Below, piece after piece: positions 37,876-56,047 of a DNA stretch of 64,000 nt. The notes under the pieces are model-generated. The model was not told the origin of the DNA and did not search any database. It worked only from the letters and a program-made list of their open reading frames with translations. The stretch is from a virus, in IMG/VR virus record IMGVR_UViG_3300029267_001213, positions 1-64,000 of that record; one strand, written 5' to 3'. A program made the position numbers and the translations under genes. The stretch's first letter is position 1. Every line of letters begins with the position of its first letter.

Positions 37876-39372
37876 ATGTTTGTCTGGTGGCTGGTAATAA
37901 ATTATTTAACTGCGGCGACTGTAAGGTTTCCGGCAATATTGCTGGATGTTATTTTTCCGATTCGTTTGGACGAAGACAAAGATCATGTTCTGGCGATTAA
38001 TAGAAGTCCTGAACCAGACGAGACAGACATTCCTAGAGAGGGACCTGTAAGATTACAGATAGCATCTCTTGGCAAGGCGGATGTAGATATTGAAAATACG
38101 CTTGTTTATATAAACAGCGTTCTGGCATTTGATGGCAGCTCATTTTCTGTAGACAGAAATTTGTGTTTTCAATCGGGATGGAACAGGGACGGTTGGTCGT
38201 GGGTCGGTGCGGCTGATGAGATAGGTATTCAGTCATCAGACCCGGACATGCTTTATGAAATAGCAATTTATCCGGATGAAGACTTTGAGTCTGAAGAAGA
38301 AATTTCTGTCCGGGTTGTTTCGCAGACAGTTCATTCATCGGCAACAATGGATGAGACTTATTCATTCACTATCGAAGATTATTCAGCTCCAGAAATTCTT
38401 TTATTAACACCGGTGGACGAATTTACACTGGATGTAGAATTCAATGAGCCGGTCAGGATGGAGGGAGACGGCGATTTATCAGACGCGCTTACGCTGGGCA
38501 ATTACAGCATAGAGCGACAGAATGAAGATCCTTTTCCGGCTGTACATCTGGAAGTGGTTGCGGTCGAAGCCGTGGATGATTCCACTGTCCGGCTGACGTT
38601 TCAGTGGGAATCTACTCCGGTGCAGATTTATGAGCTTACAGTCGAAAATGTTGAGGACATAAAAGGTAATGCAATTGATCCGGATAATAATACGGCAACA
38701 TGGTCCGGATATGAATGGCCAGTTCCAGAGGGACGCGAGTTCAGCATTTACTATAACATGCTTCCGGGCATTGCCAGACAGCTTGATGAGAACTTGGACC
38801 TGCGAAGGTTAACGGCATGCTTCGAAGAAATTCTTTATTTGCTTTTATGGTGGATAGATAAATTCACATGGCAGGTTGACATTGATCGGGCTACGGAATC
38901 TCAGTTGGATGAGTTACTTCTGGATATGGGCAATCCGTTTAACTTCGAGATGGATGTCAATCAGAAGCGAAAATTGCTTCGAGTGCTTTGGGAGATATAT
39001 CAATCCAAAGGAATCGACCGAGCAATGGAGAATGTAATTTATTTATTTTTAGGACTGGAGGTCAGGGTCCGGGCGTTTGTAGATTTTCTGGACGAAGAAG
39101 GACAGAACTATATGTGGCGGCTAGGTCATTCAAGACTAGGAACGGATACGGCCCTGTGGCCTACGAGCGAATGGAGTCAGCTGGCATTTAATGTTTACAG
39201 CGATGTAATTCTTACAGATGACCAGCGCGGCAAGATTGAACAGATAATAGAAATCATGCGTCCGGCGGAAAGTCATTTTGCCTTTCTTATAGAACCGGAT
39301 ACAATACCAGAAACAGATCACTGGCAGCTTGGTCGCAGCCGTCTTGGTGTTGAGACTTTCCTGCATGAGTGA
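37876..39372 (+). CDS. Baseplate wedge / P2 tail protein I-like with Ig-like domains
   Basis: VEFNEPV, LDELLLDMG, YQSKG, MRPAESHF, LGRSRLG. Confidence 0.7.
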   Translation: MFVWWLVINYLTAATVRFPAILLDVIFPIRLDEDKDHVLAINRSPEPDETDIPREGPVRLQIASLGKADVDIENTLVYINSVLAFDGSSFSVDRNLCFQSGWNRDGWSWVGAADEIGIQSSDPDMLYEIAIYPDEDFESEEEISVRVVSQTVHSSATMDETYSFTIEDYSAPEILLLTPVDEFTLDVEFNEPVRMEGDGDLSDALTLGNYSIERQNEDPFPAVHLEVVAVEAVDDSTVRLTFQWESTPVQIYELTVENVEDIKGNAIDPDNNTATWSGYEWPVPEGREFSIYYNMLPGIARQLDENLDLRRLTACFEEILYLLLWWIDKFTWQVDIDRATESQLDELLLDMGNPFNFEMDVNQKRKLLRVLWEIYQSKGIDRAMENVIYLFLGLEVRVRAFVDFLDEEGQNYMWRLGHSRLGTDTALWPTSEWSQLAFNVYSDVILTDDQRGKIEQIIEIMRPAESHFAFLIEPDTIPETDHWQLGRSRLGVETFLHE

Positions 39373-39383
39373 GGAGGACAGAG

Positions 39384-41450
39384 ATGAATAAATTCGATTG
39401 GTACTTTGATCAGCTTGTTTCAGAGGGAGACTTGGACGATGCATTCGACAATGTAGAACAGGCGCTCTGGAACATTGCTGGAGATCAAGATTTCTCCGGC
39501 ATAAGCTCTGGCATTGTTGCACAGGAATGGACTTGGCCGTCATGGTCGATAGCTATTACAGCTCCGGGCACTGGAAACGATAAGCTCGGCAGACGATTGT
39601 TCCTTGATGCAGCTGCAGAAATTGATTGCTCTGAAGATGAAAACGGAACGAGCACGTCGGTGGGCGCAGGTAAGGAAAGATTCATTTCTGTATTTGCAGA
39701 ATATGATAGAGAGCTTTCCAATCCACAGACGGACGGCAATGGAGTTCCGGTTTATGCTACGGTAACGGAGAAGGTTAATTTCCGTGTAGTCATGGGTTCT
39801 GAAGTCACAGCGCCGGCCACGGATTCAGACAAACCGGCATTGGATTCTGAAGACATACTGGTTGCGGATATTAAAATCGACGAGAACACCGGATCCAACG
39901 GCATACAGAATGCGGATATTAATCCTCATAATGGGACCACTATTAAAAACAGGCGTGAGGATTTCATCAGAGATGAGGATGCAAATAAAGCGTGGTCTAC
40001 TACCAAGGAAGCACTGGCGGAGTTAATACAGCTTTACAGTTCGGGTGGTGGGTCTATTCCGGTGAACATAACTGAAGACTGGCATAATGCAGAATCTCTG
40101 AGTTCCGACAATGTGGAAGATGCTATTAATGAGATCATAAACGAGCTGGCGGATGACACTGGAGATACGGCATGTGGTGCTGACAGAATCGGGGCAGATG
40201 CAGAGACGGGTTCTCCTGATTCATTGTCTCAGGGCAGCATCAGAGATCAGCTGGAAGAACTTCTGGACATAGCAAATGCAAGAGTTAGAAAAGATATTGC
40301 GGATACCATTACTGCAAATCATACATTGACCAATGGCATTAAGTCAGAGGGCATAATTCAGCTGCTTACGGATGACGCTTTCCTGAAAGGTGCGGACGCT
40401 GGAGTGGGCGGCGAAGACAATGTGGTTCCATTAGTCAAGACTGCTACAAAAAGCAGTGCAACAGGTATCCAGTGGGGAGATGATTATGCCAGTATTATAG
40501 ATACTTTCAATTGCACATGGGATCAGTCGGGCGGTAAGTTTAAGAGAGAAACAGCATCATTTGATTCTTATGCGGTCATGGTCACGGTTCAGGGAATTGT
40601 ACTTGCATATAAAAGCAAACAGGATGCGGACCATGCGACCGGATGGGATAAGGGGATTATTGGTTCAGGTGGCTGGACGAATGCGTCAACCATTGCCAAC
40701 GGACCAGACGGCAAAGTTACCGAAGTAGGACTTTCGTCCGGTAAGTGGCTGGCTGTAAATTGCAAATGGGACCCGACATTATTTACTGGTGCTGGCGGCT
40801 GGGACATGATTGACGGTTCGGAAGATGCTTATGCCATAAAGACAGACGTGGTCGGATATGTTGTTTACTGGAAAGACCATAACAGACTTGATGGCGGTGG
40901 CAGTGGCAATGGCGTTTGGAAAGAAGATGATGTTGTTTTCGGAACTGGCACAGGATCGCCGGAACAGCAGTCATGGAACGGGACATGGTCGTGGGGCGGT
41001 CCTGCATCGTCGAGATCTGAAATGCTGTTTAGTTCTTCCGACGGACCGGAAGTACAGGAAACTCCAGCCGGAGGCGTGATAGTAAAACGCGGTCAGACGG
41101 TAAATCTCGGCAGTGTAACCTTATGGCAGAGCAGAGCGTTGGTCGCGGGCGAGGTAGCGATCATCGAAGCCAAGATCATAGGCATACAAGATGATAATTC
41201 TGAAGCAGCTGCATATTGGAAGGTAGGTTCTGTTTATCATAACGGAACCAATTTGGTATGGGTGTATGGCAGTGGTGATCAGGAGGTAGTGCCCGAGAAA
41301 GAATCTAGCGGTGCTTCTGGGTGGGATGCAAACATATCTTTAAGTTCTCCGGTTATCCGAATAATCGCACAAGGGAACACCGGTGATACAGTAAACTGGA
41401 AGGCCGAGATTAAGGTAACTATCAGACGCAGCAACGAGAGTTGTGCGTAA
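39384..41450 (+). CDS. Tail fibre protein
   Basis: Last large tail gene; Gly/Trp-rich C-terminal half with internal NCxWD duplication. Confidence 0.65.
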   Translation: MNKFDWYFDQLVSEGDLDDAFDNVEQALWNIAGDQDFSGISSGIVAQEWTWPSWSIAITAPGTGNDKLGRRLFLDAAAEIDCSEDENGTSTSVGAGKERFISVFAEYDRELSNPQTDGNGVPVYATVTEKVNFRVVMGSEVTAPATDSDKPALDSEDILVADIKIDENTGSNGIQNADINPHNGTTIKNRREDFIRDEDANKAWSTTKEALAELIQLYSSGGGSIPVNITEDWHNAESLSSDNVEDAINEIINELADDTGDTACGADRIGADAETGSPDSLSQGSIRDQLEELLDIANARVRKDIADTITANHTLTNGIKSEGIIQLLTDDAFLKGADAGVGGEDNVVPLVKTATKSSATGIQWGDDYASIIDTFNCTWDQSGGKFKRETASFDSYAVMVTVQGIVLAYKSKQDADHATGWDKGIIGSGGWTNASTIANGPDGKVTEVGLSSGKWLAVNCKWDPTLFTGAGGWDMIDGSEDAYAIKTDVVGYVVYWKDHNRLDGGGSGNGVWKEDDVVFGTGTGSPEQQSWNGTWSWGGPASSRSEMLFSSSDGPEVQETPAGGVIVKRGQTVNLGSVTLWQSRALVAGEVAIIEAKIIGIQDDNSEAAAYWKVGSVYHNGTNLVWVYGSGDQEVVPEKESSGASGWDANISLSSPVIRIIAQGNTGDTVNWKAEIKVTIRRSNESCA

Positions 41451-41460
41451 GGAGATAATA

Positions 41461-41694
41461 ATGTCGAAAAAAGAGAAAGAGCCGAAACGGATAAAGGTTG
41501 TGCTGGGTCTTGGTTCCCGTAATAAGAAAGACATACCAAGTGATCCGAGCATTCAGAAACTAATTACTGAGGATAAGGAAAGAAAAAAGTCTGAGGCTAA
41601 GGCAATTGAAAAGGTTCAGGTGGCTCGTGAAAAAAGAGCTGCTATAAAAACAGAACGAAAAAAGAAAGCTGAAAAGACTAAGACTGAAAAATAA
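41461..41694 (+). CDS. Small basic hypothetical protein
   Basis: AGGAG RBS; K/E-rich. Confidence 0.55.
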   Translation: MSKKEKEPKRIKVVLGLGSRNKKDIPSDPSIQKLITEDKERKKSEAKAIEKVQVAREKRAAIKTERKKKAEKTKTEK

Positions 41695-41825
41695 AAAACA
41701 GCCCGGCTAACCAGAGAGTGAATGATCAGCCGGGCTAAAAAGGGTAACGGAGTTAATATAGCAGAAAAAAAATTAATGTCTACTCTGGTTAATCAGAGTA
41801 CACTGAAGACACGGAGGAAAAAACG

Positions 41826-42134
41826 ATGGACTTTTTTGAAATACTTTTAAGCGTGAATTTCCTTTTACTGGCTGCAGGAGCCGGAGTAATTCTGGAGATA
41901 CTGAGAAAGGTTCTCCCTGATAAAATCGAAAAGCACAAAGTGTTTAAGATAATCCTTCCTTTACTGCCATTCATTCTGGCAACAGCCGGTTCTTTTATTC
42001 CGGGATTAAGCCCTGCGGAAAATCTGGCACAGTCGGTCGTGTTTGGATTACTGGCCGGCGCTTTGGCTGGATCTGTTTATCCGGCAGTTAAACGATTTAT
42101 TAAAATGTTCGTAAAGAATAAGGCAGCGGAATGA
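41826..42134 (+). CDS. Putative holin
   Basis: 102 aa, three hydrophobic helices, basic C-terminus. Confidence 0.7.
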   Translation: MDFFEILLSVNFLLLAAGAGVILEILRKVLPDKIEKHKVFKIILPLLPFILATAGSFIPGLSPAENLAQSVVFGLLAGALAGSVYPAVKRFIKMFVKNKAAE

Positions 42135-42454
42135 TTCCGTGGATTACAGTTCTTAAGATTGTCGGCGTGCTGGGCGGCGTGGCAATCCTGATAGCGGTCA
42201 TTAGGAATCTATGCAGACGATTCGGCTGGTTTGGTTCAGGTGGGAAAGTTACTGCGGACGATGCAAAAGAGGCATTGAAAATTCTGGAAGATGCCGTGGA
42301 GAAACATGATAAGGACAGGGACGCTATAAATTCCAGTCACACGGAAAAAAAGAAAGCTGCAAAAGCTGCCTTGGAGAAGATTCGTAATGAATCAAATAAA
42401 AAGAGTCTGGAAGATGTACTCAACAGGTCACATAAAATACGCCGCGGTCGTTAG
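42131..42454 (+). CDS. Membrane-anchored coiled-coil protein (i-spanin-like)
   Basis: N-terminal TM helix then charged helix; follows the holin. Confidence 0.45.
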   Translation: MIPWITVLKIVGVLGGVAILIAVIRNLCRRFGWFGSGGKVTADDAKEALKILEDAVEKHDKDRDAINSSHTEKKKAAKAALEKIRNESNKKSLEDVLNRSHKIRRGR

Positions 42455-42959
42455 TTGTTTCATAGCGATTATTCTGGCGGCACAGAATTCATATGCGGAT
42501 GACCAGTGCAAGGTGCAGGACTACGAGTCGGACAGAGAGCCGGATTTCAAGTGTCCTTCTCCGGGCGAACTGGAATTGCTCGGACATGTAGACCTCGAGC
42601 GTCCTGTTGTTTTGAAGGAAGGCGATATTGCTCCATATGAAGGAGCCTTATATACGAAGGCGGCGATCATCGAAACAGATTTGCAGATAATGGCACTGCG
42701 GCAGTTACGATGGCTGGACGGATGGAAAAGGCGACGGCTTCATCTGGCGGATACTGAGCTACGCAGATCAATGCACGATGCCAAGCTGGTTATAGCGGAA
42801 GCGGAAATACTTTCACTGAAACAGGAGAACAGCAGGTTGAGCGAGGAGGCGGAAGTGCAATGGTATGAGGAGCCGGTATTATGGCTGGCGGTGGGCACGG
42901 TTATTGGCGCGGTTCTCGGTGGGGGAATCGGTTACGGATATTCTCTGATTTCACGTTAA
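42387..42959 (+). CDS. Exported / membrane protein (spanin-like partner)
   Basis: Signal-like N-terminus, coiled coil, C-terminal TM; overlaps the upstream gene; exact start uncertain. Confidence 0.45.
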   Translation: MNQIKRVWKMYSTGHIKYAAVVSCFIAIILAAQNSYADDQCKVQDYESDREPDFKCPSPGELELLGHVDLERPVVLKEGDIAPYEGALYTKAAIIETDLQIMALRQLRWLDGWKRRRLHLADTELRRSMHDAKLVIAEAEILSLKQENSRLSEEAEVQWYEEPVLWLAVGTVIGAVLGGGIGYGYSLISR

Positions 42960-42999
42960 AAAACACGGAAAAACCAAGGAAATAGCGGCATTTATTCCG

Positions 43000-43024
43000 T
43001 AACTATGCGGAATCATTAGGGAAC
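43000..43024 (+). promoter_or_regulatory. 25-bp motif copy (TAnC-N5-GRAATCATTA-NN-GAAC)
   Basis: Matches two inverted copies at 51828-51852 and 51892-51916. Confidence 0.5.
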
Positions 43025-43050
43025 TTTCTGTCTTTTTATGTCGATTTTCC

Positions 43051-43080
43051 TTGATACCAATATAGAATATAATTTATACT
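43051..43080 (+). promoter_or_regulatory. Sigma70-like promoter of the small-gene block
   Basis: TTGATA-N18-TATACT, 21 nt before ATG 43102. Confidence 0.6.
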
Positions 43081-43101
43081 TAAAATAAAGGAGGCAGCAC
43101 G

Positions 43102-43479
43102 ATGAAACTAATAAATAAAAAACACTACATTAACAAGGACGCGGCAATTGGGAAACTGAAGAAGGACCTGATGTCTCTTTTATTCGTGAATCCATTTTGC
43201 AGATTGGAAGCAAAATTCACGAGAGACGGCTGGCGGTGCGTGGTTGTTGAAAAAGGCAACGTTATAAAGCGCCCAAGAATTGAGACTGTCGAAGCACTTG
43301 CAAGAGCCGGTTACCTGAAGGCGGACAGGCTGGACCCGGATAAAAAGAAATCTTATCTGTACAATCCGACGGAAAAACTTTTCCGGAAAGTTCTCAAACT
43401 TCAGCACAAGGCAGCGGGCCCGGCGGATGTGTTCGATGCAATGATGAGGAGGTCAGCGACTTTTAATCTGTATGCTTAA
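43102..43479 (+). CDS. Hypothetical basic protein
   Basis: AAGGAGG RBS; first gene after the promoter. Confidence 0.7.
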   Translation: MKLINKKHYINKDAAIGKLKKDLMSLLFVNPFCRLEAKFTRDGWRCVVVEKGNVIKRPRIETVEALARAGYLKADRLDPDKKKSYLYNPTEKLFRKVLKLQHKAAGPADVFDAMMRRSATFNLYA

Positions 43480-43527
43480 TCAATGATGACTGCCTATCGG
43501 CAACGGTAGGCAGAGATGATTGATTAA
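43476..43527 (+). other. RNase III-type hairpin 1
   Basis: 9 bp stem, 5x5 internal loop, 10 bp stem, GCAA tetraloop. Confidence 0.6.
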
Positions 43528-43719
43528 TCACTGTTCTTTGAAATGCGAATCGGAACGAAGACATCAGCTTCCAAGAAAAATGTCCCGTTCCACTTTTAAC
43601 AATTCTTGGCGAGTATCAAAGCGGCCAGAAAAACTGAGGCAAAAAGTAAGACCTCTTAAACAAATCCTTACCGGATGGCGGCGATACTTTTCCTAGCCGA
43701 CAGGCAAAACGGAAAGCCA
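43528..43719 (+). ncRNA. Putative structured ncRNA with two pseudoknots
   Basis: Several complementary segments in an ORF-free region between two RNase III-like hairpins. Confidence 0.45.
43532..43543 (+). promoter_or_regulatory. boxA-like antitermination element
   Basis: TGTTCTTTGAAA versus the rrn boxA consensus TGCTCTTTAACA. Confidence 0.55.
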
Positions 43720-43778
43720 GCTTAATTGTTGTTAGAGTGCATCATTGGTAGATGGTGCACTCAATAGAATGATTAAGC
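43720..43778 (+). other. RNase III-type hairpin 2
   Basis: 11 bp stem, 4x5 internal loop, 12 bp stem, 4-nt loop; G-U pairs fix the + strand. Confidence 0.6.
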
Positions 43779-43804
43779 GAGCAAAAAAAAACGTCCACCA
43801 CCAG
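43778..43804 (+). repeat. CGTCCACCACC(AG) dispersed repeat, copy 1
   Basis: Also at 47688-47705 and 59498-59528. Confidence 0.7.
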
Positions 43805-43839
43805 ATCATAAAAAACAGATTAAAAAAAAGGAGGCGACC

Positions 43840-44235
43840 ATGAATAGGAAAGAAAAGAATCAAGGCATGAATTGGGTTAGGCAGTCAACAAGGTTGGCTA
43901 TCTATCTCAGAGACGGACTTGCTTGTGCGTATTGCGGCGACTCATTGGAACAAGGCGCACAGCTCACGTTGGATCATTTGAAGCCGCATTCGAAAGGCGG
44001 AACGAATGAGGCGAAGAATTTAGTAACGTGTTGCCATAGGTGCAACAGTGCACGCGGCAACAGGCCGGTGAAAACATTTTGCAAGACGGTAGCCGAGTAT
44101 CTTAATCACGATGCGGATCCGGATGAGATTCTCAAGCATGTCAGGCGGACAGCTCGCAGGCAGTTACCACGGAAGGAAGCACGCAAGCTGATAAAGCGCA
44201 GAGGTTCCGTGGCGAGAGTACTGGCGAGAATGTAA
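43840..44235 (+). CDS. HNH endonuclease
   Basis: RDGLACAYCG, TLDHLKPHSKGG, NLVTCCHRCNSARG. Confidence 0.92.
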   Translation: MNRKEKNQGMNWVRQSTRLAIYLRDGLACAYCGDSLEQGAQLTLDHLKPHSKGGTNEAKNLVTCCHRCNSARGNRPVKTFCKTVAEYLNHDADPDEILKHVRRTARRQLPRKEARKLIKRRGSVARVLARM

Positions 44236-44274
44236 GCGAATAAAAAAATGTAAACCATAAAAAGGAGGCGAGTT

Positions 44275-44628
44275 ATGAGAATTAATTACACATGCAAAAA
44301 ATGCGGTCAGATAATTCCGAAGAAAGATATTGATGAATTTCAGGATGGATTGAAATGCGGCGGTGATCCTGAATGGGATTGTATTCCTGCATGGTGTGGT
44401 GATTGTGCTGAAAAATGTTCGGCTGGCTCGGCAGAGCCGTATGATGAAATACAGGAAAAGAATCCTGTAAAATCATATTTGGCGGACATCAAATACAATG
44501 TAGATTTACTTCTGGCAGATAAGGATTTCATGGAAAACTTTGAAGACAGCGAGCATGTTGTTACGGAACTGGAGAAGGCCAGAAAGATACTTTGCAATGT
44601 ATGGGATTACATTGGTGAGAGAAAATAA
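44275..44628 (+). CDS. Hypothetical protein with N-terminal Zn-binding motif
   Basis: CKKCG...CGDC; AAAAGGAGGCG RBS. Confidence 0.7.
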   Translation: MRINYTCKKCGQIIPKKDIDEFQDGLKCGGDPEWDCIPAWCGDCAEKCSAGSAEPYDEIQEKNPVKSYLADIKYNVDLLLADKDFMENFEDSEHVVTELEKARKILCNVWDYIGERK

Positions 44629-44642
44629 AGGAGATCAGAACA

Positions 44643-44837
44643 ATGAAAAAAGCAATAAAGAAAATAAAAGTTAATTCAATGGGTGAGGCGCACAAAATAG
44701 CAATGGCGGTTGCTTTTAATTCTGGCAGGACAATCGAGGCCAGAGAAATGTTCGGCTGCTTTTTAATAATAAAAAATTCAGAGACTGTTTTGGCCATAGT
44801 TGGGGTTGGTCAAAAAAGTAAAGGAGATGTACAATGA
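44643..44837 (+). CDS. Hypothetical protein
   Basis: AAGGAG RBS. Confidence 0.55.
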   Translation: MKKAIKKIKVNSMGEAHKIAMAVAFNSGRTIEAREMFGCFLIIKNSETVLAIVGVGQKSKGDVQ

Positions 44838-45067
44838 GTAAAATAGAAACCGACAGAAGAGAAATACTGGACGCTATTCATGCATTGGAATACGCAAATG
44901 AAAACGATTATGCATTGGATGGCATTACAGACGAAGATGTAAAAAATTTCAGAGCTGTAGGCGGGGCAATATTTGAACTGAGAAAAAATTCTGCTGTTCG
45001 GAATTTATGCAGGAGCTTGAATCTCAGCATGGAAGACGTTCTGAACATTGCCATAAGATTTATGTGA
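44834..45067 (+). CDS. Hypothetical protein (paralogue of the 47312 N-terminus)
   Basis: NENDY...GITD...LNLS shared. Confidence 0.7.
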   Translation: MSKIETDRREILDAIHALEYANENDYALDGITDEDVKNFRAVGGAIFELRKNSAVRNLCRSLNLSMEDVLNIAIRFM

Positions 45068-45075
45068 GCGATGCA

Positions 45076-45255
45076 ATGACAAACAGGAAAGGTAAAATAA
45101 GGAAAGTAAAAATAACCAATCAAAGGCGAGCGAAGTGTTTCTACTGCAAGCGCACGGAACCAAGCTCAAAACGACTTCGAGAATTTGAAGCAATGCCGGA
45201 CGAAGAATTCGACAGATTTTATTGCGGATGCCGGGATCCTGTTTCTAGACGATAA
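45076..45255 (+). CDS. Small Cys-containing hypothetical protein
   Basis: AKCFYC...FYCGC; start uncertain. Confidence 0.5.
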   Translation: MTNRKGKIRKVKITNQRRAKCFYCKRTEPSSKRLREFEAMPDEEFDRFYCGCRDPVSRR

Positions 45256-45283
45256 CCTTTTTTCAATCAGAAATAATTTTATA

Positions 45284-45347
45284 GCCAAGCGAAAGCCGGA
45301 ACATTGTTTCCGGCTTGTCGGAGTGTGGCGACTCCGGCCTGATGAGC
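45284..45347 (+). ncRNA. Type II hammerhead ribozyme
   Basis: GC-GAAA, stem III (GCCGGAA/TTCCGGC), UU, stem I (GTCGGAGT/ACTCCGGC), CTGATGA-GC; complete core in an intergenic region. Confidence 0.88.
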
Positions 45348-45369
45348 AGCCGAAAAAAAGAGGTGAGCT

Positions 45370-45573
45370 ATGAAAAACAAAAAGGCGAAAAAGAAACTGA
45401 ATGAGGCGGAACGAGAGTACAGCAAAGTACTTCGGACATATTCCGATACGATGCTGGCCGAAACGATTGAGACGCTTGTGAGAGAGCACAAGAATCTCAG
45501 GATGAAAAAGACCATGGCAATTCATGAAGCACAGCGGCGTGGTTTTGCTGGCATTTGCCAGTCAAAAAAATAG
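45370..45573 (+). CDS. Hypothetical protein
   Basis: AAGAGGTGA RBS. Confidence 0.6.
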   Translation: MKNKKAKKKLNEAEREYSKVLRTYSDTMLAETIETLVREHKNLRMKKTMAIHEAQRRGFAGICQSKK

Positions 45574-45582
45574 GAGGCGAAA

Positions 45583-45852
45583 ATGAAGGGCAAAATTAAA
45601 ATCGAATCGTTGAAGCGGTTCTTAGCAGTGAAGGTGGACGAGGCAACGTTACAATCGGATGAGTATCGCAAAAAGGGCGAACACAAGGCGGCAGATATAG
45701 CGCATGGCCGGACGGATGCTTATGTGTATTTGTTCGATTTGTTTTTAAGAATTGATGATGCTGAGAATCCGGACAGTGATTTGAATCATCGAGTGCAGAC
45801 AATATCTGCACAGATAAGGAGATTACAAAATGAAAAAGCGAAAGGGATCTAA
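45583..45852 (+). CDS. Hypothetical protein
   Basis: AGGAGGCG RBS. Confidence 0.65.
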   Translation: MKGKIKIESLKRFLAVKVDEATLQSDEYRKKGEHKAADIAHGRTDAYVYLFDLFLRIDDAENPDSDLNHRVQTISAQIRRLQNEKAKGI

Positions 45853-45921
45853 TAAACCGAAGCCGATTAGCAATGAGGACGTCAAACATTGGGCGTAGCC
45901 AAATAAAAAAGAGGGTGAATC

Positions 45922-46398
45922 ATGAACATTATTAAAAAGAACAGCGGTCACAAAATAGCAATGGTCAGCCATGCGAGAGCTTGTCAGAATAAAAATAATT
46001 ATGAAGATGAAAATCTTCCAAAGGACAAGGCTACTCTGGTATTTTTCCTTATGAGAAAATGGCTGGAGATTGGAAATAAAAATGCATGGATCAGAGAGAG
46101 TATGGATCCTCCATTCAATGTGGAATCATTTTGCCCGTGTTTGTCCAGAGAAGACCTTCAAGAAAAATTCGAACATGGGAACTGGTGTCTCGGTCAGGCG
46201 TTTTATTACCTGAAGGATGGCAAGGGTTATTGCTTTATCAATCAGATCAACGGCGGTGATGAATGGCTGGTTATCAGAAACTGTATTCAGTTTGAAAGTG
46301 TGACCATGGCGGCTGTAATACGGGACGGAAAATTTGAGGACTTTCTTGACCGGATCGAAAAGGCTACAGACAGCCAGTTAGCAAGACTGGAATACTAA
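45922..46398 (+). CDS. Hypothetical protein
   Basis: RBS; HGNWCLGQAF...CFINQINGGDEWLVI looks like a conserved motif. Confidence 0.7.
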   Translation: MNIIKKNSGHKIAMVSHARACQNKNNYEDENLPKDKATLVFFLMRKWLEIGNKNAWIRESMDPPFNVESFCPCLSREDLQEKFEHGNWCLGQAFYYLKDGKGYCFINQINGGDEWLVIRNCIQFESVTMAAVIRDGKFEDFLDRIEKATDSQLARLEY

Positions 46399-46408
46399 GG
46401 AGAGGACA

Positions 46409-46639
46409 ATGCCAAAGAAACAGAACAAGGAAAAGAAAATTCGGGAACTGGACAAAGAGATAAGAAAGACATTCCGTGAAATTTCGGACATCGGTTACGA
46501 GCTTTTCGATCTCTCAGGCGTAACATGGCAGGAGCAGGAGATACTTGAAGAACGGTTTAAGGACCTGCATGTAAAAAAGAACCGGTTAGTCAGAAAGTTC
46601 AAGCGTCTTACCGGGGAGGGAAAATACGATGCCTTATAA
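46409..46639 (+). CDS. Hypothetical coiled-coil protein
   Basis: GGAGAGG RBS. Confidence 0.6.
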   Translation: MPKKQNKEKKIRELDKEIRKTFREISDIGYELFDLSGVTWQEQEILEERFKDLHVKKNRLVRKFKRLTGEGKYDAL

Positions 46640-47120
46640 AATTGAATGGAACGGCGGAGATTATAGCAACGTGGAACACGGAAGGTTTTATTGGGATGGC
46701 GAGTGCGGTCCATGCGGAAGGCCATCTGTAAAACGCAAAGGAGGGGTGAATAAAAATATACCGATTGTGGTTGATGCGTTTCTGGATTGCAGAGGGTATT
46801 CTCCGCAGTTGATCAGGATGCAGGGGTTATCTTTCATTGCTGGTGAGATTGTAGCGAAAGCATTGCACGACAGAATATCTTTCCTGCGGTGCAGTCATCC
46901 GGCAATAGGTTATGGTCCCGGCGGCAAGAAAACATACTTCTTGGTTCATCCCGGATTGATTGATCGTTTTATGACAGTATCCGGCTGGGGTGGTCGTAAT
47001 GACAAGGAGAAGGGTCGGTCGGATGCCATAGGCGAAGTGGCATTGGCGATGATAGATTTAATTCCTTCGGCGGATGAATGCGAAAAGATGGCAGCCAGCA
47101 TCAAGGAGAAAGCAAAATAA
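46629..47120 (+). CDS. Hypothetical protein
   Basis: GGAGG RBS; coupled to the upstream gene. Confidence 0.6.
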   Translation: MPYKIEWNGGDYSNVEHGRFYWDGECGPCGRPSVKRKGGVNKNIPIVVDAFLDCRGYSPQLIRMQGLSFIAGEIVAKALHDRISFLRCSHPAIGYGPGGKKTYFLVHPGLIDRFMTVSGWGGRNDKEKGRSDAIGEVALAMIDLIPSADECEKMAASIKEKAK

Positions 47121-47133
47121 AGAGAGGTAAGCA

Positions 47134-47319
47134 ATGGCTAAGAAATATTATCAGGTCACTTTGACAGTGACGGTCGAAGAAAATGATCTTATCGAATCAG
47201 AACTGGATGTTGAAGGATGGATATGGAATCAGCTTCATGAAGAGAATGAGTATATGGAACTTAATGCTATTAATGCAACAGAACATGTAAACCTTAAAAA
47301 GGAGGCGGGCTATGAATGA
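47134..47319 (+). CDS. Small acidic hypothetical protein
   Basis: GAGGT RBS. Confidence 0.6.
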   Translation: MAKKYYQVTLTVTVEENDLIESELDVEGWIWNQLHEENEYMELNAINATEHVNLKKEAGYE

Positions 47320-47680
47320 CATAAGAAAGAAACTGATGGACATGGACCGGGAAAAAATTTACAGCGCGATTCTAAAGCACGATTCAGAAAACGAGAATGA
47401 TTATACTCGGGAGGGAATAACAGACCGAGAGGTGAGGATGTTTCGCATAATAGGAATGCGCGGGATGGATGCCTTGTGGGTTGACGTAAAAGATTTGGCG
47501 AAGATGTTGAATCTGTCCGGCGAGACAGTCATGTCTATAGCGGAAGAATATTTTTCAATCTGCGAAAACTGCGGCAAGCGTATTACGGAATATGATATTA
47601 AAGTTTATCGGGACGGTGTAAATCATCCGGATGGCATTCCGTCATATTGTGCAGATTGCGCGGAATTAGAATCAGCATAA
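47312..47680 (+). CDS. Two-domain hypothetical protein (44834-like plus 44275-like Zn domain)
   Basis: Internal paralogy visible in the translations. Confidence 0.7.
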   Translation: MNDIRKKLMDMDREKIYSAILKHDSENENDYTREGITDREVRMFRIIGMRGMDALWVDVKDLAKMLNLSGETVMSIAEEYFSICENCGKRITEYDIKVYRDGVNHPDGIPSYCADCAELESA

Positions 47681-47723
47681 ATAAAACCGTCCACCACCAG
47701 CCCCATAAAAAAGGAGAGGCAAT

Positions 47724-47921
47724 ATGGATTACAAAACAAGAACAACATTAACAGAAAACAATGAAGGCAAATGGACGGTATCTGTTCAGGCATATGATAA
47801 GACCGTCTGGACAGGCGGGTATTATCATTCTTTTGGTGAGGCTTGTGCAGCTGCCGAGCGTGCAATAGGCGACGTTTATCAAATGATTGCAAGGCGCGAA
47901 GGAGGAGAAAAAAAATGTTGA
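47724..47921 (+). CDS. Hypothetical protein
   Basis: AAGGAGAGG RBS. Confidence 0.6.
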   Translation: MDYKTRTTLTENNEGKWTVSVQAYDKTVWTGGYYHSFGEACAAAERAIGDVYQMIARREGGEKKC

Positions 47922-48205
47922 ACCTTTCAGACAGCATGCTCAAGGAATTGAGAATTCTCAAAAGACATTCGGACGGCAAGATGGCATTCGGCATGAAGAT
48001 CAAGGATAAGCCTCCGGTGTGCAGAACTGAAATGTTACTTAGCGTAGCTAATGAATTCGTTCAAAAAGGTTATGCAACATTCATGGATATTGATAAATCC
48101 AGAGTGAAGATAACCAAGGAGGGAGAAAAGCTCGTAGAAAAATTTTTTAATCGCAAGACATACAAGGCCGATAAGCGGTTTAATTATCTGGCACAGTCCA
48201 AGTAA
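47915..48205 (+). CDS. Hypothetical protein, winged-helix-like
   Basis: FVQKGYA...VKITKEGEK; ATG 47915 after GGAGGAG. Confidence 0.5.
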   Translation: MLNLSDSMLKELRILKRHSDGKMAFGMKIKDKPPVCRTEMLLSVANEFVQKGYATFMDIDKSRVKITKEGEKLVEKFFNRKTYKADKRFNYLAQSK

Positions 48206-48222
48206 TAAAAAGGAGGGTAACA

Positions 48223-48885
48223 ATGAACGGAACAAAAAACGCAGACAGGCCGAAGGAATTCGGACAGGTATGTGTATGGCCGGGAACGGTAGTGAAGACG
48301 GCGAGGGCTGAAGGAGACAGCGTAAAAGATTTCGAAGAGCATGTGCGAAAAGAATTTGGCGTGCGGGTAATGTATCTTGAGGAGATTACAACAGCCCCGG
48401 ACATCGAGAATGGTAAACCTGTTGAAGGCACAGGCGGAAGGAATGATTTGTTTTTCGCTGTACACAATGAGGACGTTGAAAAGTTCGCAGTGCCGAGGCT
48501 GTCGGTGGGAATCCGCTGGATAGGCGATGTCCTGTCAAAAGAAAATTATCTGAGTCCAATATATCCGGAGAGGGTATTTGAGTACGTTTTGAGAAAAGAT
48601 GTGCTTACGAAATACGCGGATGATGATGGCGAAGATGATGATTGTGATTCCTACTTCGAAGACATTGAGCGTCTGGAAGAAATCCGTGAAAGGATGCATG
48701 AGCTTCTGGAGGAGGCCGAAGAAATAGTTCGTAATTTCGAAGGCGGCGATATGGCATACCAGAGGGCGAAGAGTTACTGGCTGGCACATATCAAAACGGC
48801 ATTGGACGATGAGCATGATTATCTTGGCGGTTCAATGGTAACCATGGAGGACACTATTAACGAGATGGAGAAAGTAAACCAGTAA
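48223..48885 (+). CDS. Hypothetical two-domain protein
   Basis: GTGGRNDLFF motif; acidic linker; GGAGGGT RBS. Confidence 0.7.
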   Translation: MNGTKNADRPKEFGQVCVWPGTVVKTARAEGDSVKDFEEHVRKEFGVRVMYLEEITTAPDIENGKPVEGTGGRNDLFFAVHNEDVEKFAVPRLSVGIRWIGDVLSKENYLSPIYPERVFEYVLRKDVLTKYADDDGEDDDCDSYFEDIERLEEIRERMHELLEEAEEIVRNFEGGDMAYQRAKSYWLAHIKTALDDEHDYLGGSMVTMEDTINEMEKVNQ

Positions 48886-48909
48886 AAACAGAAAGGAGTA
48901 ACAGAAAGC

Positions 48910-49155
48910 ATGATTTGTGTAATGGCAAAAATCAGGAGAGGTGAGTTCACTGTAGGTGGTCAGAAATTCGAACCTGTCGAAATGAACAGGCTGTTCGATG
49001 TGCCCGTAGACAACGTGGCGACAGCAGAAAAGGAGGTAAAAAAACAGATCGAAAAAATAAATAAAACTGGACGGCAGGGAAACTACGAGTATATCGGTCC
49101 CTGTAAAATGGCAGACAGCGGTGTTCAGCCCAAAGTCAAAGCCAAGGCTGAGTAA
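48910..49155 (+). CDS. Hypothetical protein
   Basis: AAGGAG RBS. Confidence 0.55.
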   Translation: MICVMAKIRRGEFTVGGQKFEPVEMNRLFDVPVDNVATAEKEVKKQIEKINKTGRQGNYEYIGPCKMADSGVQPKVKAKAE

Positions 49156-49188
49156 CTCAAAACGAAACAGAGAAAGGAGAAGAAACAG

Positions 49189-49509
49189 ATGGCGAAAAAA
49201 ACAGGAAAAGGATCAAGCAACAAAGCCCCGAGCGCAACAAATCAGGAACCCAAGACAGACCCGAAACCTCCGGCACCGAAGACAAGCGAAGTCGTTTTCG
49301 AAAAAAAGGAAACGAAGACTCTGGTGATTGAAGATGACTCCAAGAAACGGGCCATTTTTATCAAGGAGAAAGGCGAGAGAAAATCGTTGGTCATCCTTCG
49401 TTTTGCAAAGCAGCTTTATGTCAAAATGTCGGATGAGCAGCGCAAGGAGGTCGCGGAGGCATCCCTGAATGCAGTCATAAGCTCATTCAATAAACAGGGA
49501 TGGAAGTAA
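49189..49509 (+). CDS. Hypothetical basic protein
   Basis: AAGGAG RBS. Confidence 0.6.
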   Translation: MAKKTGKGSSNKAPSATNQEPKTDPKPPAPKTSEVVFEKKETKTLVIEDDSKKRAIFIKEKGERKSLVILRFAKQLYVKMSDEQRKEVAEASLNAVISSFNKQGWK

Positions 49510-49513
49510 CAGC

Positions 49514-49570
49514 GGTTTAATTACTGCTAGGGCCTACCAGCAATGGTAGGTCCACTGGAGTAATTAAGCT
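49514..49570 (+). other. RNase III-type hairpin 3
   Basis: 12 bp stem, 4x5 internal loop, 10 bp stem, GCAA tetraloop; directly before the RBS of 49593. Confidence 0.65.
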
Positions 49571-49592
49571 CCCATAAAAGGAGGCGAAAAAA

Positions 49593-49823
49593 ATGGACGC
49601 AGGAATAGAGCTTTGTTCTTTATGTGATTATGAGCTTTATAATTTGCTGGATAGTCTCATAGCAAAAAAGCAACGGTACTACGAGATGACAGCATTGGGC
49701 AAAGACGAAAAGCTCATGGAGATGCTTCGAGATGTTTATCATCTGGATATCGAAAAAATAGATTTGGATATTCAGCGTGTCGAAGAAGAACTGGACATTC
49801 GATTTTCGGAAGAGACCTATTAA
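49593..49823 (+). CDS. Small acidic hypothetical protein
   Basis: AAAAGGAGGCG RBS. Confidence 0.65.
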   Translation: MDAGIELCSLCDYELYNLLDSLIAKKQRYYEMTALGKDEKLMEMLRDVYHLDIEKIDLDIQRVEEELDIRFSEETY

Positions 49824-49838
49824 CAAAAGGAGGCGAAA

Positions 49839-50138
49839 ATGAAAAACAAAATAGCGACTAATCGGCTTCTTGATTCGGTATGGACATTAGAATACCAAGA
49901 ACTGAACACGGGTGAAATAGAAATCATTTCGTATTCAAGGGATAACCCATACGGATATGATCGGGAAAGAGAAGTGCCAATGGTCAGGCTTGTTGAGGAA
50001 GACCCGAACAGGACCGTGAAGGCAGTAAGGTTTGCAGAATACGAACAATTCGGACGTTGCACGAAGTGGGGTGAGTCTATTCCTGTTGCAAATCCAAAGC
50101 CAGTTTTTCAGTATCCATATCAGGGTCAGGTACAATGA
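49839..50138 (+). CDS. Hypothetical protein
   Basis: AAAAGGAGGCG RBS. Confidence 0.65.
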   Translation: MKNKIATNRLLDSVWTLEYQELNTGEIEIISYSRDNPYGYDREREVPMVRLVEEDPNRTVKAVRFAEYEQFGRCTKWGESIPVANPKPVFQYPYQGQVQ

Positions 50139-50518
50139 AAAAAAGAAGACAAAAAAAGCCTACATTCATTGAGAGAAAGATACTGATGAAGTATCTCAAT
50201 CTTAGGCGAGTAGAATGTAAGGTTAAAGAAATGTCAGCATTGCTGAATGAAAATTATTATGAAGCTGTTATCGCAAATGCAGAACGAAAAATTGTTCATA
50301 CTATCCAAAGAGAGCTGGCAACCTTTTCGAATGAACATCTGCAATCCATAACGGCACATTACATAGAAAGGGCTAATGAAGAAATAGACGTTTATACAAA
50401 AAAGCGACATAGGAAAATCGAGGAAGAAAGAAAGGCGTATTGCAAACAAAAAAGGAGGCGCGATGACGAAGAAACAGGAACCGAAAAGAAAAGCAGCCAT
50501 GCTGGCAAAGTGTCATGA
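50135..50518 (+). CDS. Hypothetical protein
   Basis: ATGA overlap with the upstream gene. Confidence 0.55.
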   Translation: MKKRRQKKPTFIERKILMKYLNLRRVECKVKEMSALLNENYYEAVIANAERKIVHTIQRELATFSNEHLQSITAHYIERANEEIDVYTKKRHRKIEEERKAYCKQKRRRDDEETGTEKKSSHAGKVS

Positions 50519-50747
50519 CTGCATGGGACATTATGCTGATGGCATGGTTGACTGCGAGAACGTTGGATGTCCTTTATATTCATGGATGCCTTACAGAGAA
50601 AAAGATGCAGACCTTGAATGGATGAAGTACAATCCAAAGCGTAAAGGTAAAGTAGTTAAGGAGAAAAAGAAACTTACTCCAGAGCAGCGTGAAATACTGA
50701 GTAAGCGCATGAAAAAGACAAGGAGAAAGTTAAAGAAAGGAAATTAG
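50463..50747 (+). CDS. Small four-Cys basic protein
   Basis: AKCHDCMG...DCENVGCPLY; AAAAGGAGGCG RBS. Confidence 0.7.
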   Translation: MTKKQEPKRKAAMLAKCHDCMGHYADGMVDCENVGCPLYSWMPYREKDADLEWMKYNPKRKGKVVKEKKKLTPEQREILSKRMKKTRRKLKKGN

Positions 50748-50750
50748 TTC

Positions 50751-51161
50751 ATGGCACCGAAGAGACAGCCCAAGCGATTCAAAAAAAGAGAGCGCATGAA
50801 AAAAGGCATGGAGCTGCGGCGTCTGGCTCAGGATGCGGTAAGTAAGATTGACGAAACGGCACAAGTTCAGTGGGGGTGGGATCAAGGACATATGCTGATA
50901 GTAATATTTAAGCGCAGGGATATACTTGATGAAGCAAAAAAACATGCATCAGTCGGATGCAAGCCCGGGCACTACAGCGTACCAATGGCTACAGATTTCA
51001 TTCATAAGAAAGAAACTGAGGCGAAGGATGAGCTGAAAAAAGCAATCAGGACTGCCATTGGCAAAGATACTCCGGTAGCGATACATGCATATAATCGGGC
51101 TTATGAAGATGTGCTCGGCGTTAAACATGTAGGAGGAGGCGATGTCAGGAATATTAAATGA
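50751..51161 (+). CDS. Hypothetical protein
   Basis: ORF in the operon. Confidence 0.6.
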   Translation: MAPKRQPKRFKKRERMKKGMELRRLAQDAVSKIDETAQVQWGWDQGHMLIVIFKRRDILDEAKKHASVGCKPGHYSVPMATDFIHKKETEAKDELKKAIRTAIGKDTPVAIHAYNRAYEDVLGVKHVGGGDVRNIK

Positions 51162-51486
51162 TGTTCTGGACAGATGTTATGGATACGGTGGACCACTACT
51201 GAGCAGCGACCGTGAGGCAATTCAGGAATACGTCAGGCAGCCAAGCGAGGAAGGATGGAACAGAATAAAGGATGTCGTGGTCAATCCTAATTACGGACTG
51301 GGACTGAGTGTTGAAAATGCTCTGGTCGGATGGATGCTAAATCTGGATGCTTCTGTCTTTTCAAGAGAGAACATGCGTCAGCAAATTATCAATCGAAGGA
51401 TTCAGCCACCCAGCGGATTCAATCTGGTGCAAGCTTTAAAATTCGTAACAGCAAGGTATGAAAAACAGAAAGGCAATCGGGCGTAG
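51142..51486 (+). CDS. Hypothetical protein
   Basis: GGAGGAGG RBS; last gene of the small-gene block. Confidence 0.6.
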   Translation: MSGILNDVLDRCYGYGGPLLSSDREAIQEYVRQPSEEGWNRIKDVVVNPNYGLGLSVENALVGWMLNLDASVFSRENMRQQIINRRIQPPSGFNLVQALKFVTARYEKQKGNRA

Positions 51487-51494
51487 CCAGTGAT

Positions 51495-51603
51495 TTTCCT
51501 TTCCGGCATACAGCCGATAGAACCAGATAATGCGGACAGGGTTTTAAGATTCGCCTCTTTTTTACCTGTTTGTGGTTCTGTCGGTTGTATGCTGGGAAGG
51601 AAA
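51495..51603 (+). ncRNA. Long hairpin RNA with an anti-Shine-Dalgarno loop (putative sRNA)
   Basis: 31-bp helix with 4 G-U pairs and no mismatch, 8-bp inner stem, loop TTCGCCTCTTTTTT. Confidence 0.6.
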
Positions 51604-51822
51604 GCGCAATTAAGCAGCGATACTTCAGTGAATGAACAAGGGTTAAGCATACGACATTAAAAAAGAAACCGGCTACAAAATGATACATAAAGAAAGGGGT
51701 GATATACCTAAGACAACAGCGACGCGGACTTCTTTAATAAAATTGGATAGATAACTTTTCTATGAGCAAACTTTTTCAAGAAAGATACTAAGTGCTATTA
51801 AAAGTATGGAGCCGGTATTGTT

Positions 51823-51920
51823 GCATGGTTCGGTAATGATTTCATGCGGGTAGGTTCCCTATGAAGAAAAACGGCGTTTTGAAAACGCATGGTTCAGTAA
51901 TGATTTCAGCCGGATAGGTT
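51823..51920. repeat. Two 34-bp direct repeats (30/34 identical), 64-bp period
   Basis: GCATGGTTCRGTAATGATTTCA..CGGRTAGGTT at 51823-51856 and 51887-51920. Confidence 0.85.
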
Positions 51921-52141
51921 TTGTATGGCGACAACATACAAATAGAATGATCTTCTTTCTTTACCGGTACCTAATACTGCAGCATTATTTTTGCATTATG
52001 GCTGTACATCATACAGCAATTTTATATAATGCGTAGTACCTTAGTACATAGTAAATCTTACGTTCTATTATTTTGATTGATTGAATATGAAGACGAATTG
52101 TCTTTAATCAAATTTATTAAAAGGCAATGTATTGAATCAAC

Positions 52142-52158
52142 AGGTAATTTAATTACCT
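52142..52158. promoter_or_regulatory. 17-bp palindrome upstream of the AAA+ gene (possible operator)
   Basis: AGGTAATT-T-AATTACCT. Confidence 0.4.
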
Positions 52159-52198
52159 TAAAAAACTGGAAAAAGAACCAGAGAAAGGAAAGGGTAAC

Positions 52199-53365: not shown

Positions 53366-53375
53366 GGAGGGTGCT

Positions 53376-55004: not shown

Positions 55005-55025
55005 AAAAAAGAAAGGGGTAACAAA

Positions 55026-55958: not shown

Positions 55959-55982
55959 TATTAGCGATAGTAAATAATATGA

Positions 55983-56012
55983 TTGACAGCATAATAATAT
56001 TTCCTTAATAAT
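55983..56012 (+). promoter_or_regulatory. Sigma70-like promoter for the HTH / recombination operon
   Basis: Perfect TTGACA-N18-AATAAT in an AT-rich intergenic region. Confidence 0.5.
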
Positions 56013-56047
56013 GCAGATTGTGAAGAGGCGAGAGAGGAGCATGTCGT

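Follow-up and report, generated by a model that had tools for sequence, protein, structure and literature searches.

A hairpin-flanked, untranslated spacer with a boxA-like string in the putative early operon of an uncultivated virus

A non-coding stretch, positions 43528-43719, lies where the lysis genes of an uncultivated virus give way to its small early genes. A first-pass annotation had described it as a pseudoknotted RNA with several boxA elements, boxed by two ribonuclease III (RNase III) sites and placed directly upstream of an HNH nuclease gene. The sequence is IMG/VR record IMGVR_UViG_3300029267_001213 (86,553 bases, estimated to be 78% complete), of which bases 1-64000 make up the 64,000-nt stretch analysed here, hereafter the window. 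We find that 43528-43719 is best read as an untranslated spacer within an early polycistronic transcript that undergoes processing, and not as a compact pseudoknotted RNA: the flanking hairpins are the solid feature, whereas the pseudoknotted, multi-boxA RNA proposed between them is mostly an over-reading of chance complementarity. As for what the spacer does, our leading explanation, held tentatively and at a little under even confidence, is a nut-like or ribosomal RNA operon (rrn) leader-like site made of a hairpin plus boxA, followed by a Rho-prone spacer and a processing hairpin. What survives testing is an order of elements: a promoter-like site, a short gene, a first hairpin (H1), a boxA-like string, a stretch of ~175 nt that looks Rho-prone, a second hairpin (H2), an A-rich leader and the early genes.

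The spacer forms the middle part of a 360-nt gap (43480-43839) between an orphan open reading frame (ORF) at 43102-43479 and the HNH gene at 43840-44235, and all long ORFs of the window are on the + strand. The two hairpins that flank it belong to a family of three:

43474-43529, + strand: hairpin H1, with an AU-rich lower stem, an internal loop, a 10-bp upper stem and a GCAA loop, overlapping the stop codon of the ORF before it
43720-43778, + strand: hairpin H2, built like H1, 61 nt before the HNH start codon
49514-49570, + strand: hairpin H3, the third and last family member, between the early genes ORF 49189-49509 and ORF 49593-49823

In all three, an internal loop separates an AU-rich foot (TTAAT/ATTAA) from an upper stem of 10-12 bp that is capped by a tetraloop, and 8 of the 23 pairs in their alignment stay paired despite changes on both sides. 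None of 200 shuffles was as stable as H1 (-28.7 kcal/mol, z -8.7), H2 (-27.7 kcal/mol, z -7.7) or H3 (-31.7 kcal/mol, z -6.75), and when the whole record was folded in sliding 64-nt segments (mean -11.5, sd 4.2 kcal/mol), the segments covering them (43469-43532 at -29.4, 43717-43780 at -29.1 and 49509-49572 at -32.3) were among the most stable spots. A covariance model (R1) built from the three hairpins returned exactly three + strand matches on the 86.5-kb record, namely H1, H2 (68.9 bits) and H3 (76.9 bits), all of them within the small-gene block; on 33 loci of distant relatives (24 + 9) it returned none at E up to 1.

The + strand of these hairpins folds 8.7-10.7 kcal/mol better than the - strand (-20.0 kcal/mol for H1 and -17.0 for H2), because G-U pairs become A-C on the other strand, and the hairpins thus point to coding-sense RNA. 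They stand on the coding strand between cistrons, H1 and H3 directly after stop codons and H2 before a start codon. As H1 and H3 each follow a gene while H2 follows the spacer, the spacer occupies a gene's place. We consider it likely that the family acts at the RNA level. Each member has 21-23 pairs with an internal loop between lower and upper stems, which agrees with the two-turn geometry (~20-22 bp) of RNase III substrates; the idealised substrate is described as two helical turns, in which loops or mismatches lead to single-strand cleavage, with product hairpins that stabilise 3' ends (PMC3867540). Whether H1-H3 are in fact RNase III substrates we regard as evenly balanced. Of the two RNase III sites that had been proposed to bracket the stretch, the hairpins and their geometry are therefore real, while cleavage at them is a prediction; the ~250-nt size proposed for the RNA that such cleavage would release agrees with the 248 nt between the centres of H1 and H2.

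Directly downstream of H1 are the two elements on which the antitermination reading turns:

43531-43543, + strand: boxA-like string CTGTTCTTTGAAA (CUGUUCUUUGAAA), beginning 4 nt past the final pair of H1
43544-43719, + strand: untranslated stretch of weak structure, in which C exceeds G and YC dinucleotides are frequent and which holds the proposed stems and pseudoknots

Positions 43533-43543 have one mismatch to GYTCTTTAANA (PMC5725501), a consensus that is gammaproteobacterial and may not be that of the host. The longer string at 43531-43543 agrees at 11 of 13 positions with the Bacillus subtilis rrn consensus AUGAUCUUUGAAA as given in PMC13753749; it differs at two positions at the 5' end and is identical over the 9-nt core UCUUUGAAA. 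Nothing else on the + strand of the 86.5-kb record matches the B. subtilis rrn boxA at up to two mismatches, and the mean unpaired probability of the string is 0.58. When the spacer was dinucleotide-shuffled (3000 shuffles), a match as good arose in 2.7% of shuffles for the gammaproteobacterial consensus and in 0.6% for that of Bacillus. Its placement also has a parallel, in that a 2026 paper describes B. subtilis rrn operons as beginning with a small hairpin, with the boxA-like AUGAUCUUUGAAA, which binds NusB, 'immediately downstream' (PMC13753749).

Three boxA-like strings had been reported, at a spacing of about 60 nt. Only the one at 43533 is a good match; those at 43652 and 43591 are poor, with 2 and 4 mismatches to GYTCTTTAANA (counted by hand), and neither qualifies as a boxA. 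The spacing is arithmetically true, yet it means little because only one of the three strings matches well, and a periodicity is without support. A stricter boxA 12-mer gives another picture, with 62 matches in the window at up to three mismatches against 64.5 expected and, among the three strings, only 43652 qualifying; it is too strict at positions that the published consensus leaves open, which makes 43533 look poor. A full-text literature search with the 12- and 13-letter boxA strings returned nothing on rRNA leaders as judged by title or abstract. Elsewhere, the window's largest non-coding gap (51487-52198, 712 nt) holds a boxA-like string at 51729 with one mismatch (local P 0.10); it lies upstream of the promoter-like sites there (52003-52030 and 52200-52228) and was discounted.

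The composition of the spacer is unlike that of its surroundings. The coding strand of this phage is purine-rich (A 31%, G 27.5%, C 17%), whereas the spacer has 24% C and 20% G and belongs to the longest part of the genome (43519-43731) over which successive 80-nt windows have at least 4 more C than G. YC dinucleotides number 23 in 192 nt, where the genome averages 13.2 (sd 3.9), which places the spacer in the top 1.6% of windows. Among the 8 non-coding gaps tested it was the only one with C over G and had the highest YC density. According to PMC12360218, Rho works on RNA that is not translated, with a preference for A and C (YC), and boxA recruits NusB/E to the antitermination complexes of rrn operons and of lambda. 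A coding signal is absent from 43544-43719 (codon score -0.148): the 58-aa frame at 43520-43696 scores negative, whereas all 8 real genes scored are positive in frame, and it matched no PHROG and, in the PDB, only unrelated entries at E 0.6 or worse.

The genes and signals on either side of the spacer are as follows:

43051-43080, + strand: sigma-70-like promoter candidate TTGATA-18-TATACT, scoring 10/12 in a consensus scan (a pattern match only)
43102-43479, + strand: orphan 125-aa ORF with a strong ribosome-binding site, taken from the ORF list; it follows the lysis genes and is the last translated gene before the spacer
43779-43839, + strand: leader of the HNH gene, rich in A and containing the motif CGTCCACCACC at 43792-43802 and a ribosome-binding site
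43840-44235, + strand: free-standing HNH endonuclease gene, 131 aa (Pfam HNH_5 1.5e-12, HNH 1e-11)

The promoter candidate is the only promoter-like site that the consensus scan found within 42900-44300, and it is likely to be the start of the transcript that crosses the spacer; no terminator-like site was found in the same interval. The orphan ORF scores positive in frame (0.244), has no Pfam or PHROG family and matches only itself among 5.8 billion proteins. The leader of the HNH gene has a mean unpaired probability of 0.58, and the HNH gene opens a block of small genes of ~8 kb in which every gene has a strong ribosome-binding site of the AAGGAGG type.

Under the explanation that we favour, transcription would start at the host-type promoter near 43051-43080 and cross the orphan ORF, whose translation would stop within the foot of H1. 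Four nucleotides after H1 the nascent RNA would expose the boxA-like 13-mer (43531-43543), in the hairpin-then-boxA order of B. subtilis rrn leaders; host NusB and S10 would load on it, and the polymerase would presumably become Rho-resistant. The following ~175 nt would call for such resistance, being untranslated and of weak structure, with more C than G and many YC, which is the profile of a Rho-loading stretch. Without Nus loading, transcription would attenuate at the spacer; with it, the polymerase would reach the HNH gene and the small early genes. H1, H2 and H3 would serve as processing hairpins of the RNase III type or as hairpins that stabilise 3' ends, and would segment the transcript alongside a hammerhead ribozyme at 45287-45355. 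The antiterminator that had been suggested for this stretch thus draws weak to moderate support from one boxA-like 13-mer, 4 nt after H1, that heads an untranslated, YC-rich stretch with C over G. That the boxA at 43531-43543 is itself functional we consider possible though doubtful.

Three known systems resemble parts of this arrangement. Closest in detail are the rrn leaders of Escherichia coli and B. subtilis, where a hairpin is likewise followed within a few nucleotides by boxA and the core UCUUUGAAA is identical (PMC13753749), where the site likewise opens a lengthy stretch without translation that has to be shielded from Rho (PMC12360218), and where hairpins of the RNase III type lie nearby. 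The phage differs in that the site belongs to an early operon, that its hairpin is ~52 nt long with an internal loop, and that two 5' positions of the candidate site depart from the consensus.

In the pR-cro-nutR-tR1 region of lambda, a first early gene is followed by boxA and boxB and then by a Rho-dependent terminator. The phage shares with it the order of a promoter-like site, a short first gene, a boxA-like string with a hairpin and an untranslated C-rich stretch before the delayed genes; unlike in lambda, where boxA precedes boxB, the hairpin precedes boxA and is much longer, no N-like protein was identified, and the two show no sequence similarity. In the N complex of lambda, too, boxA recruits NusB/E (PMC12360218).

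The early mRNA of T7 also comes from a one-strand early operon with hairpins of about two turns and an internal loop between cistrons; five RNase III signals are described in its precursor of ~7000 nt, where single-strand cleavage leaves stabilising 3' hairpins (PMC3867540). The phage differs in having three hairpins, two of which bracket a segment without a gene and at which cleavage is predicted; the RNase III of its host may differ in specificity. A blastn search of 43000-44700 against the phage collection showed no similarity to T7 sites, and no search was aimed directly at those sites.

Several points weigh against the antitermination reading. The local P values from the shuffles, 0.027 (gammaproteobacterial) and 0.006 (Bacillus), are nominal, since the site had already been pointed out beforehand and both tests share it. 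The mismatch to the gammaproteobacterial consensus falls at position 8, with G for A. Across the window, matches to GYTCTTTAANA at up to one mismatch number 10 against 10.3 expected, and matches to the Bacillus consensus 5 against 4.4. Inspection by eye found no boxC-like GU-rich element after boxA and no boxA after H2 or H3. At ~52 nt, H1 is far longer than a small leader hairpin or the boxB of lambda. A spanin-like lysis gene hints at a two-membrane host, for which the Bacillus consensus may not apply. The composition argument draws on 8 gaps in one genome, and promoter-like sites across 41000-56500 occur at chance density (24, against 24.7 in shuffles). Finally, no homologue of the spacer, the neighbouring ORFs or the hairpins was found in the collections searched, so that no reading is backed by conservation.

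These searches covered the region and its neighbours. The blastn search of 43000-44700 found no match among 50,697 phage records, and blastn and nhmmer searches of the gap against 26 relatives' loci and the rest of the genome returned only chance matches or matches the size of a ribosome-binding site. A scan of IMG/VR for the hairpin-shaped pattern gave two hits, both by chance and neither a hairpin, and the stem pattern of the first inner hairpin gave none in JGI metagenome contigs. The ORFs on either side of the gap have no IMG/VR relatives, and a search with the downstream ORF among the 5.8 billion proteins found only itself. The virus is a myovirus, as it encodes tail sheath, tape measure and baseplate proteins. 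Its tail protein (37876-39372) led in IMG/VR to one fragment of 4.7 kb that is 99% identical and ends before the region, while its sheath protein is 26% identical to that of the best cultured phage and 42% identical to those on the best IMG/VR contigs, which are short. The spanin-like protein (42387-42959) has 44 representatives, the best of them other than itself 37% identical; 21 aligned and led to 13 IMG/VR loci. Among the matches listed, the ORFs downstream of the spanin-like gene were mostly on the opposite strand, and there is therefore no comparable gap there.

Near-identical DNA is present in metagenome runs from sediment and seawater. Ten sequencing runs contain the stretch, and none of those listed is RNA. 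Contigs from four runs are low-depth pieces of the same phage, with parts of the gap lacking cover in some of them, and show no variant within 43528-43719 where it is covered; the only differences were a C>T change within the HNH gene (43928), the insertion of a single base behind 43782 and, near 44636-44639, two small deletions.

Much of this is also what an inert spacer would look like. On that explanation, ~190 nt without any sequence-specific role are left over from gene decay or from recombination near a mobile HNH gene, and only the hairpins matter; we regard it as somewhat unlikely, though well within reach. The ordinary folding energy of the spacer, its chance-level self-complementarity, its lack of an Rfam match and of any copy elsewhere in the genome or in the 26 relatives' loci, and the chance density of boxA-like strings across the window would all agree with it, and the HNH gene fits a mobile gene, since none of the 8 real genes scored has a lower codon score and its relatives stand in unrelated contexts. 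It leaves unexplained why the best boxA match lies directly after a hairpin (nominal local P 0.006-0.027) and why the composition is unlike that of the 7 other non-coding gaps tested. Moreover, compact phage genomes seldom retain 190 nt of idle sequence.

That two of only three family hairpins bracket the stretch, and that the spacer sits at a gene-like place, would instead suit a discrete small RNA of ~250 nt, cut out at H1 and H2 and acting in trans as an mRNA regulator or as a sponge for NusB/S10. A boxA-like string is present, and H2 could serve as a protective 3' hairpin after single-strand cleavage of the kind described in PMC3867540. We nevertheless consider such an RNA improbable, given that the structure of its body does not go beyond chance, that only one boxA is credible, that there is no conservation to lean on, and that its antisense matches in the 86.5 kb amount to one of 13 nt and two of 12 nt, where by hand reckoning ~0.5 and 2 are expected. 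Less probable again, by our estimate, is a decoy in which RNase III would excise a stable ~250-nt boxA-bearing RNA that would first carry the phage's polymerase past a Rho attenuator and then accumulate and titrate NusB/S10 away from rRNA operons. If true, it would be a decoy RNA for host antitermination that shares its processing system with the nearby hammerhead. The multi-boxA version of the NusB/NusE decoy in the first-pass annotation has no support, given the poor matches at 43591 and 43652.

A site acting at the DNA level, whether an operator or promoter, a replication or packaging site, or a homing target or scar of the HNH gene, with the hairpins as cruciforms, is in our judgement about as improbable as the small RNA or slightly more so. 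The position at the border of lysis and small early genes would suit such a site, as would the CGTCCACCACC motif, which is common to two other places; free-standing HNH genes are, in addition, often mobile. The strand bias of H1, H2 and H3, which fold 8.7-10.7 kcal/mol better as + strand RNA, speaks against it, as does the spacer itself, inside which there is no sigma-70-like site and no family of direct or tandem repeats.

The motif just mentioned has the form AAAA(A/C)CGTCCACCACC..AG and occurs in three + strand copies, at 43792-43802, ~47688 and ~59505. Two of them lie 25-45 nt before the start codons at 43840 and 47724, each then followed by CATAAAAAA, and the third is inside a gene. The motif may be a phage-specific promoter or operator.

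The compact RNA of the first-pass annotation, with two H-type pseudoknots and three boxA strings and a role as a ribozyme, a Nus decoy or a guide or partner RNA of the HNH protein, fares far worse. The complementary strings on which it was built are all present where they had been placed, and the nested stems appear in the minimum-free-energy fold:

43552-57 GGAACG with 43586-91 CGTTCC: stem
43560-64 GACAT with 43580-84 ATGTC: stem
43571-77 CCAAGAA with 43603-09 TTCTTGG: first pseudoknot pairing
43611-17 GAGTATC with 43683-89 GATACTT: stem, its closing pair G-U
43621-27 GCGGCCA with 43676-82 TGGCGGC: stem with one central G-G mismatch
43637-40 GAGG with 43652-55 CCTC: stem
43646-50 GTAAG with 43667-71 CTTAC: second pseudoknot pairing, 5 bp

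The whole gap folds well (z -6.0), which is because of the two flanking hairpins. The 192 nt of 43528-43719 fold at -44.3 kcal/mol, where shuffles average -39.2 (z -1.26) and 22 of 200 are as stable; the first hairpin with its pseudoknot partner (43550-43612) gives z -1.18 (26/200) and the second domain (43608-43692) z -1.99 (10/200). Perfectly complementary word pairs in the 192 nt were likewise counted against dinucleotide shuffles: there are 22 of length 5 (21.6 in shuffles), 8 of length 6 (5.7) and 2 of length 7 (1.5), at least two of the last being found in 40% of 1000 shuffles. One of the two observed 7-mer pairs is CCAAGAA/TTCTTGG, the other the unrelated AAAAGTA/TACTTTT. As 7-mer counts are at the level of shuffles, a pairing such as that of the first pseudoknot is to be expected by chance about once in this length. 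Sterically this pseudoknot could form: by hand count its second stem has 7 bp, and its loops are, in order, 6, 2 and 11 nt long. Both pseudoknots are thus possible on paper, yet folding energy and complementarity are no better than in shuffles, and it is improbable that either forms and matters.

Covariance searches agree. A cmscan of 43300-45600 against Rfam at E up to 10 gave nothing credible in 43480-43839, where the rows have E 2-10 and lie far below thresholds; no family, HEARO and all ribozyme classes included, matches the gap, and the absence of such a match, like that of any excess folding energy, leaves nothing to suggest the new ribozyme that had been proposed. The only real hit in 43300-45600 was Hammerhead_II (Rfam RF02276), complete at 45287-45355 on the + strand (54.9 bits against a threshold of 37, E 1.4e-08). 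This type II hammerhead lies in the gap before ORF 45370-45573, in the same early block and 1.5 kb downstream of the spacer. Ribozyme classes are known to share gene neighbourhoods, as PMC6765202 describes, and its nearness counts to that extent in favour of the compact RNA.

A partner RNA for the HNH protein had been proposed as well, and the HNH domain is indeed of the Cas9/IscB type: among solved structures, the protein is nearest to the HNH domains found in Cas9, in IscB and in a group II intron maturase (the maturase at E 4e-4). Like the HEARO or omega RNA of IscB, the spacer belongs to a non-coding stretch of ~200-300 nt directly upstream of an HNH gene of this type. Unlike IscB, the protein is an HNH-only protein of 131 aa, in which Pfam finds HNH-type families only and no RuvC domain. 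HEARO (RF02033) was rejected as an identity for the stretch, having no match at E up to 10, with a protein lacking RuvC and relatives that share no upstream RNA. These relatives came from 3 loci in IMG/VR and 9 in metagenomes, of which 9 are distinct (L034 duplicates L002, L037 duplicates L003 and L032 duplicates L033). In the 9 distinct loci, at 30-62% identity, the DNA upstream of the HNH gene has no similarity to the gap, and in four (L003, L035, L036 and L038) an ORF ends less than 80 nt before the HNH start. The HNH-only protein, the unrelated upstream DNA and the ORFs close upstream together tell against a partner RNA. With the chance-level 7-mers, a second pseudoknot of 5 bp, fold z values of -1.2 to -2.0 and two of three boxA strings failing, the compact RNA as a whole is highly improbable.

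The HNH gene fits a mobile, free-standing gene of the homing type. None of the 8 real genes scored has a lower codon score in frame (0.074; the others range from 0.17 to 0.49), which suggests a foreign origin. Relatives at 54-62% identity stand in unrelated phage contexts, often directly after promoter-like sequences, and the N-terminus is conserved in relatives from residue 1-2.

Least credible of all is that the 58-aa frame at 43520-43696 encodes a small protein or a maturase X-domain remnant once fused to the HNH domain: apart from the maturase match of the HNH protein noted above, it has in its favour a weak match of residues 31-58 to Pfam GIIM (E 0.006; 17 bits against a threshold of 23, with three frames tried), whereas its codon score is negative, it starts inside H1 with no ribosome-binding site like those of the phage genes, there is no signal of group II intron RNA or reverse transcriptase, and HNH relatives start at the same conserved N-terminus in unrelated contexts. 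The frame was rejected as a gene on its negative codon score, the sub-threshold GIIM match being taken as chance. A group II intron was likewise rejected, with GIIM at 17 bits below 23, no reverse-transcriptase family in the neighbours and no match to a group II intron RNA model.

Other features of the record were noted along the way. Inspected by eye, the last protein of the lysis block, the spanin-like one at 42387-42959 (+ strand), has a signal-like segment at the N-terminus and a hydrophobic one at the C-terminus, and its family (44 representatives) consists of proteins of ~170 aa with invariant Cys, Gln, Tyr, Pro and Trp positions; the protein could be a spanin of the single-component kind, in which case a two-membrane host would be indicated. 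The phage also carries a MoxR-VWA pair at 52199-55004 (+ strand), in which a MoxR-type AAA+ ATPase (bpMoxR, 4.1e-55) precedes a VWA-domain protein. No tRNA or tmRNA was found in the window; beyond it, at ~80465-80528, a sequence picked out by the sliding fold ends in GGTTCGAGTCCCGG, which resembles the T-arm of a tRNA, and a tRNA gene may lie there.

The main value of this analysis is negative, in that the pseudoknots, the multiple boxA strings, the ribozyme and the HNH partner RNA are not to be carried forward on sequence alone. If the boxA downstream of H1 is functional, the spacer would hold a Nus-factor antitermination site in a non-lambdoid, uncultivated myovirus, together with RNase III-type hairpins and a hammerhead in one early operon. 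It would then offer a compact natural case of joint controls at the RNA level, and a clue to the host.

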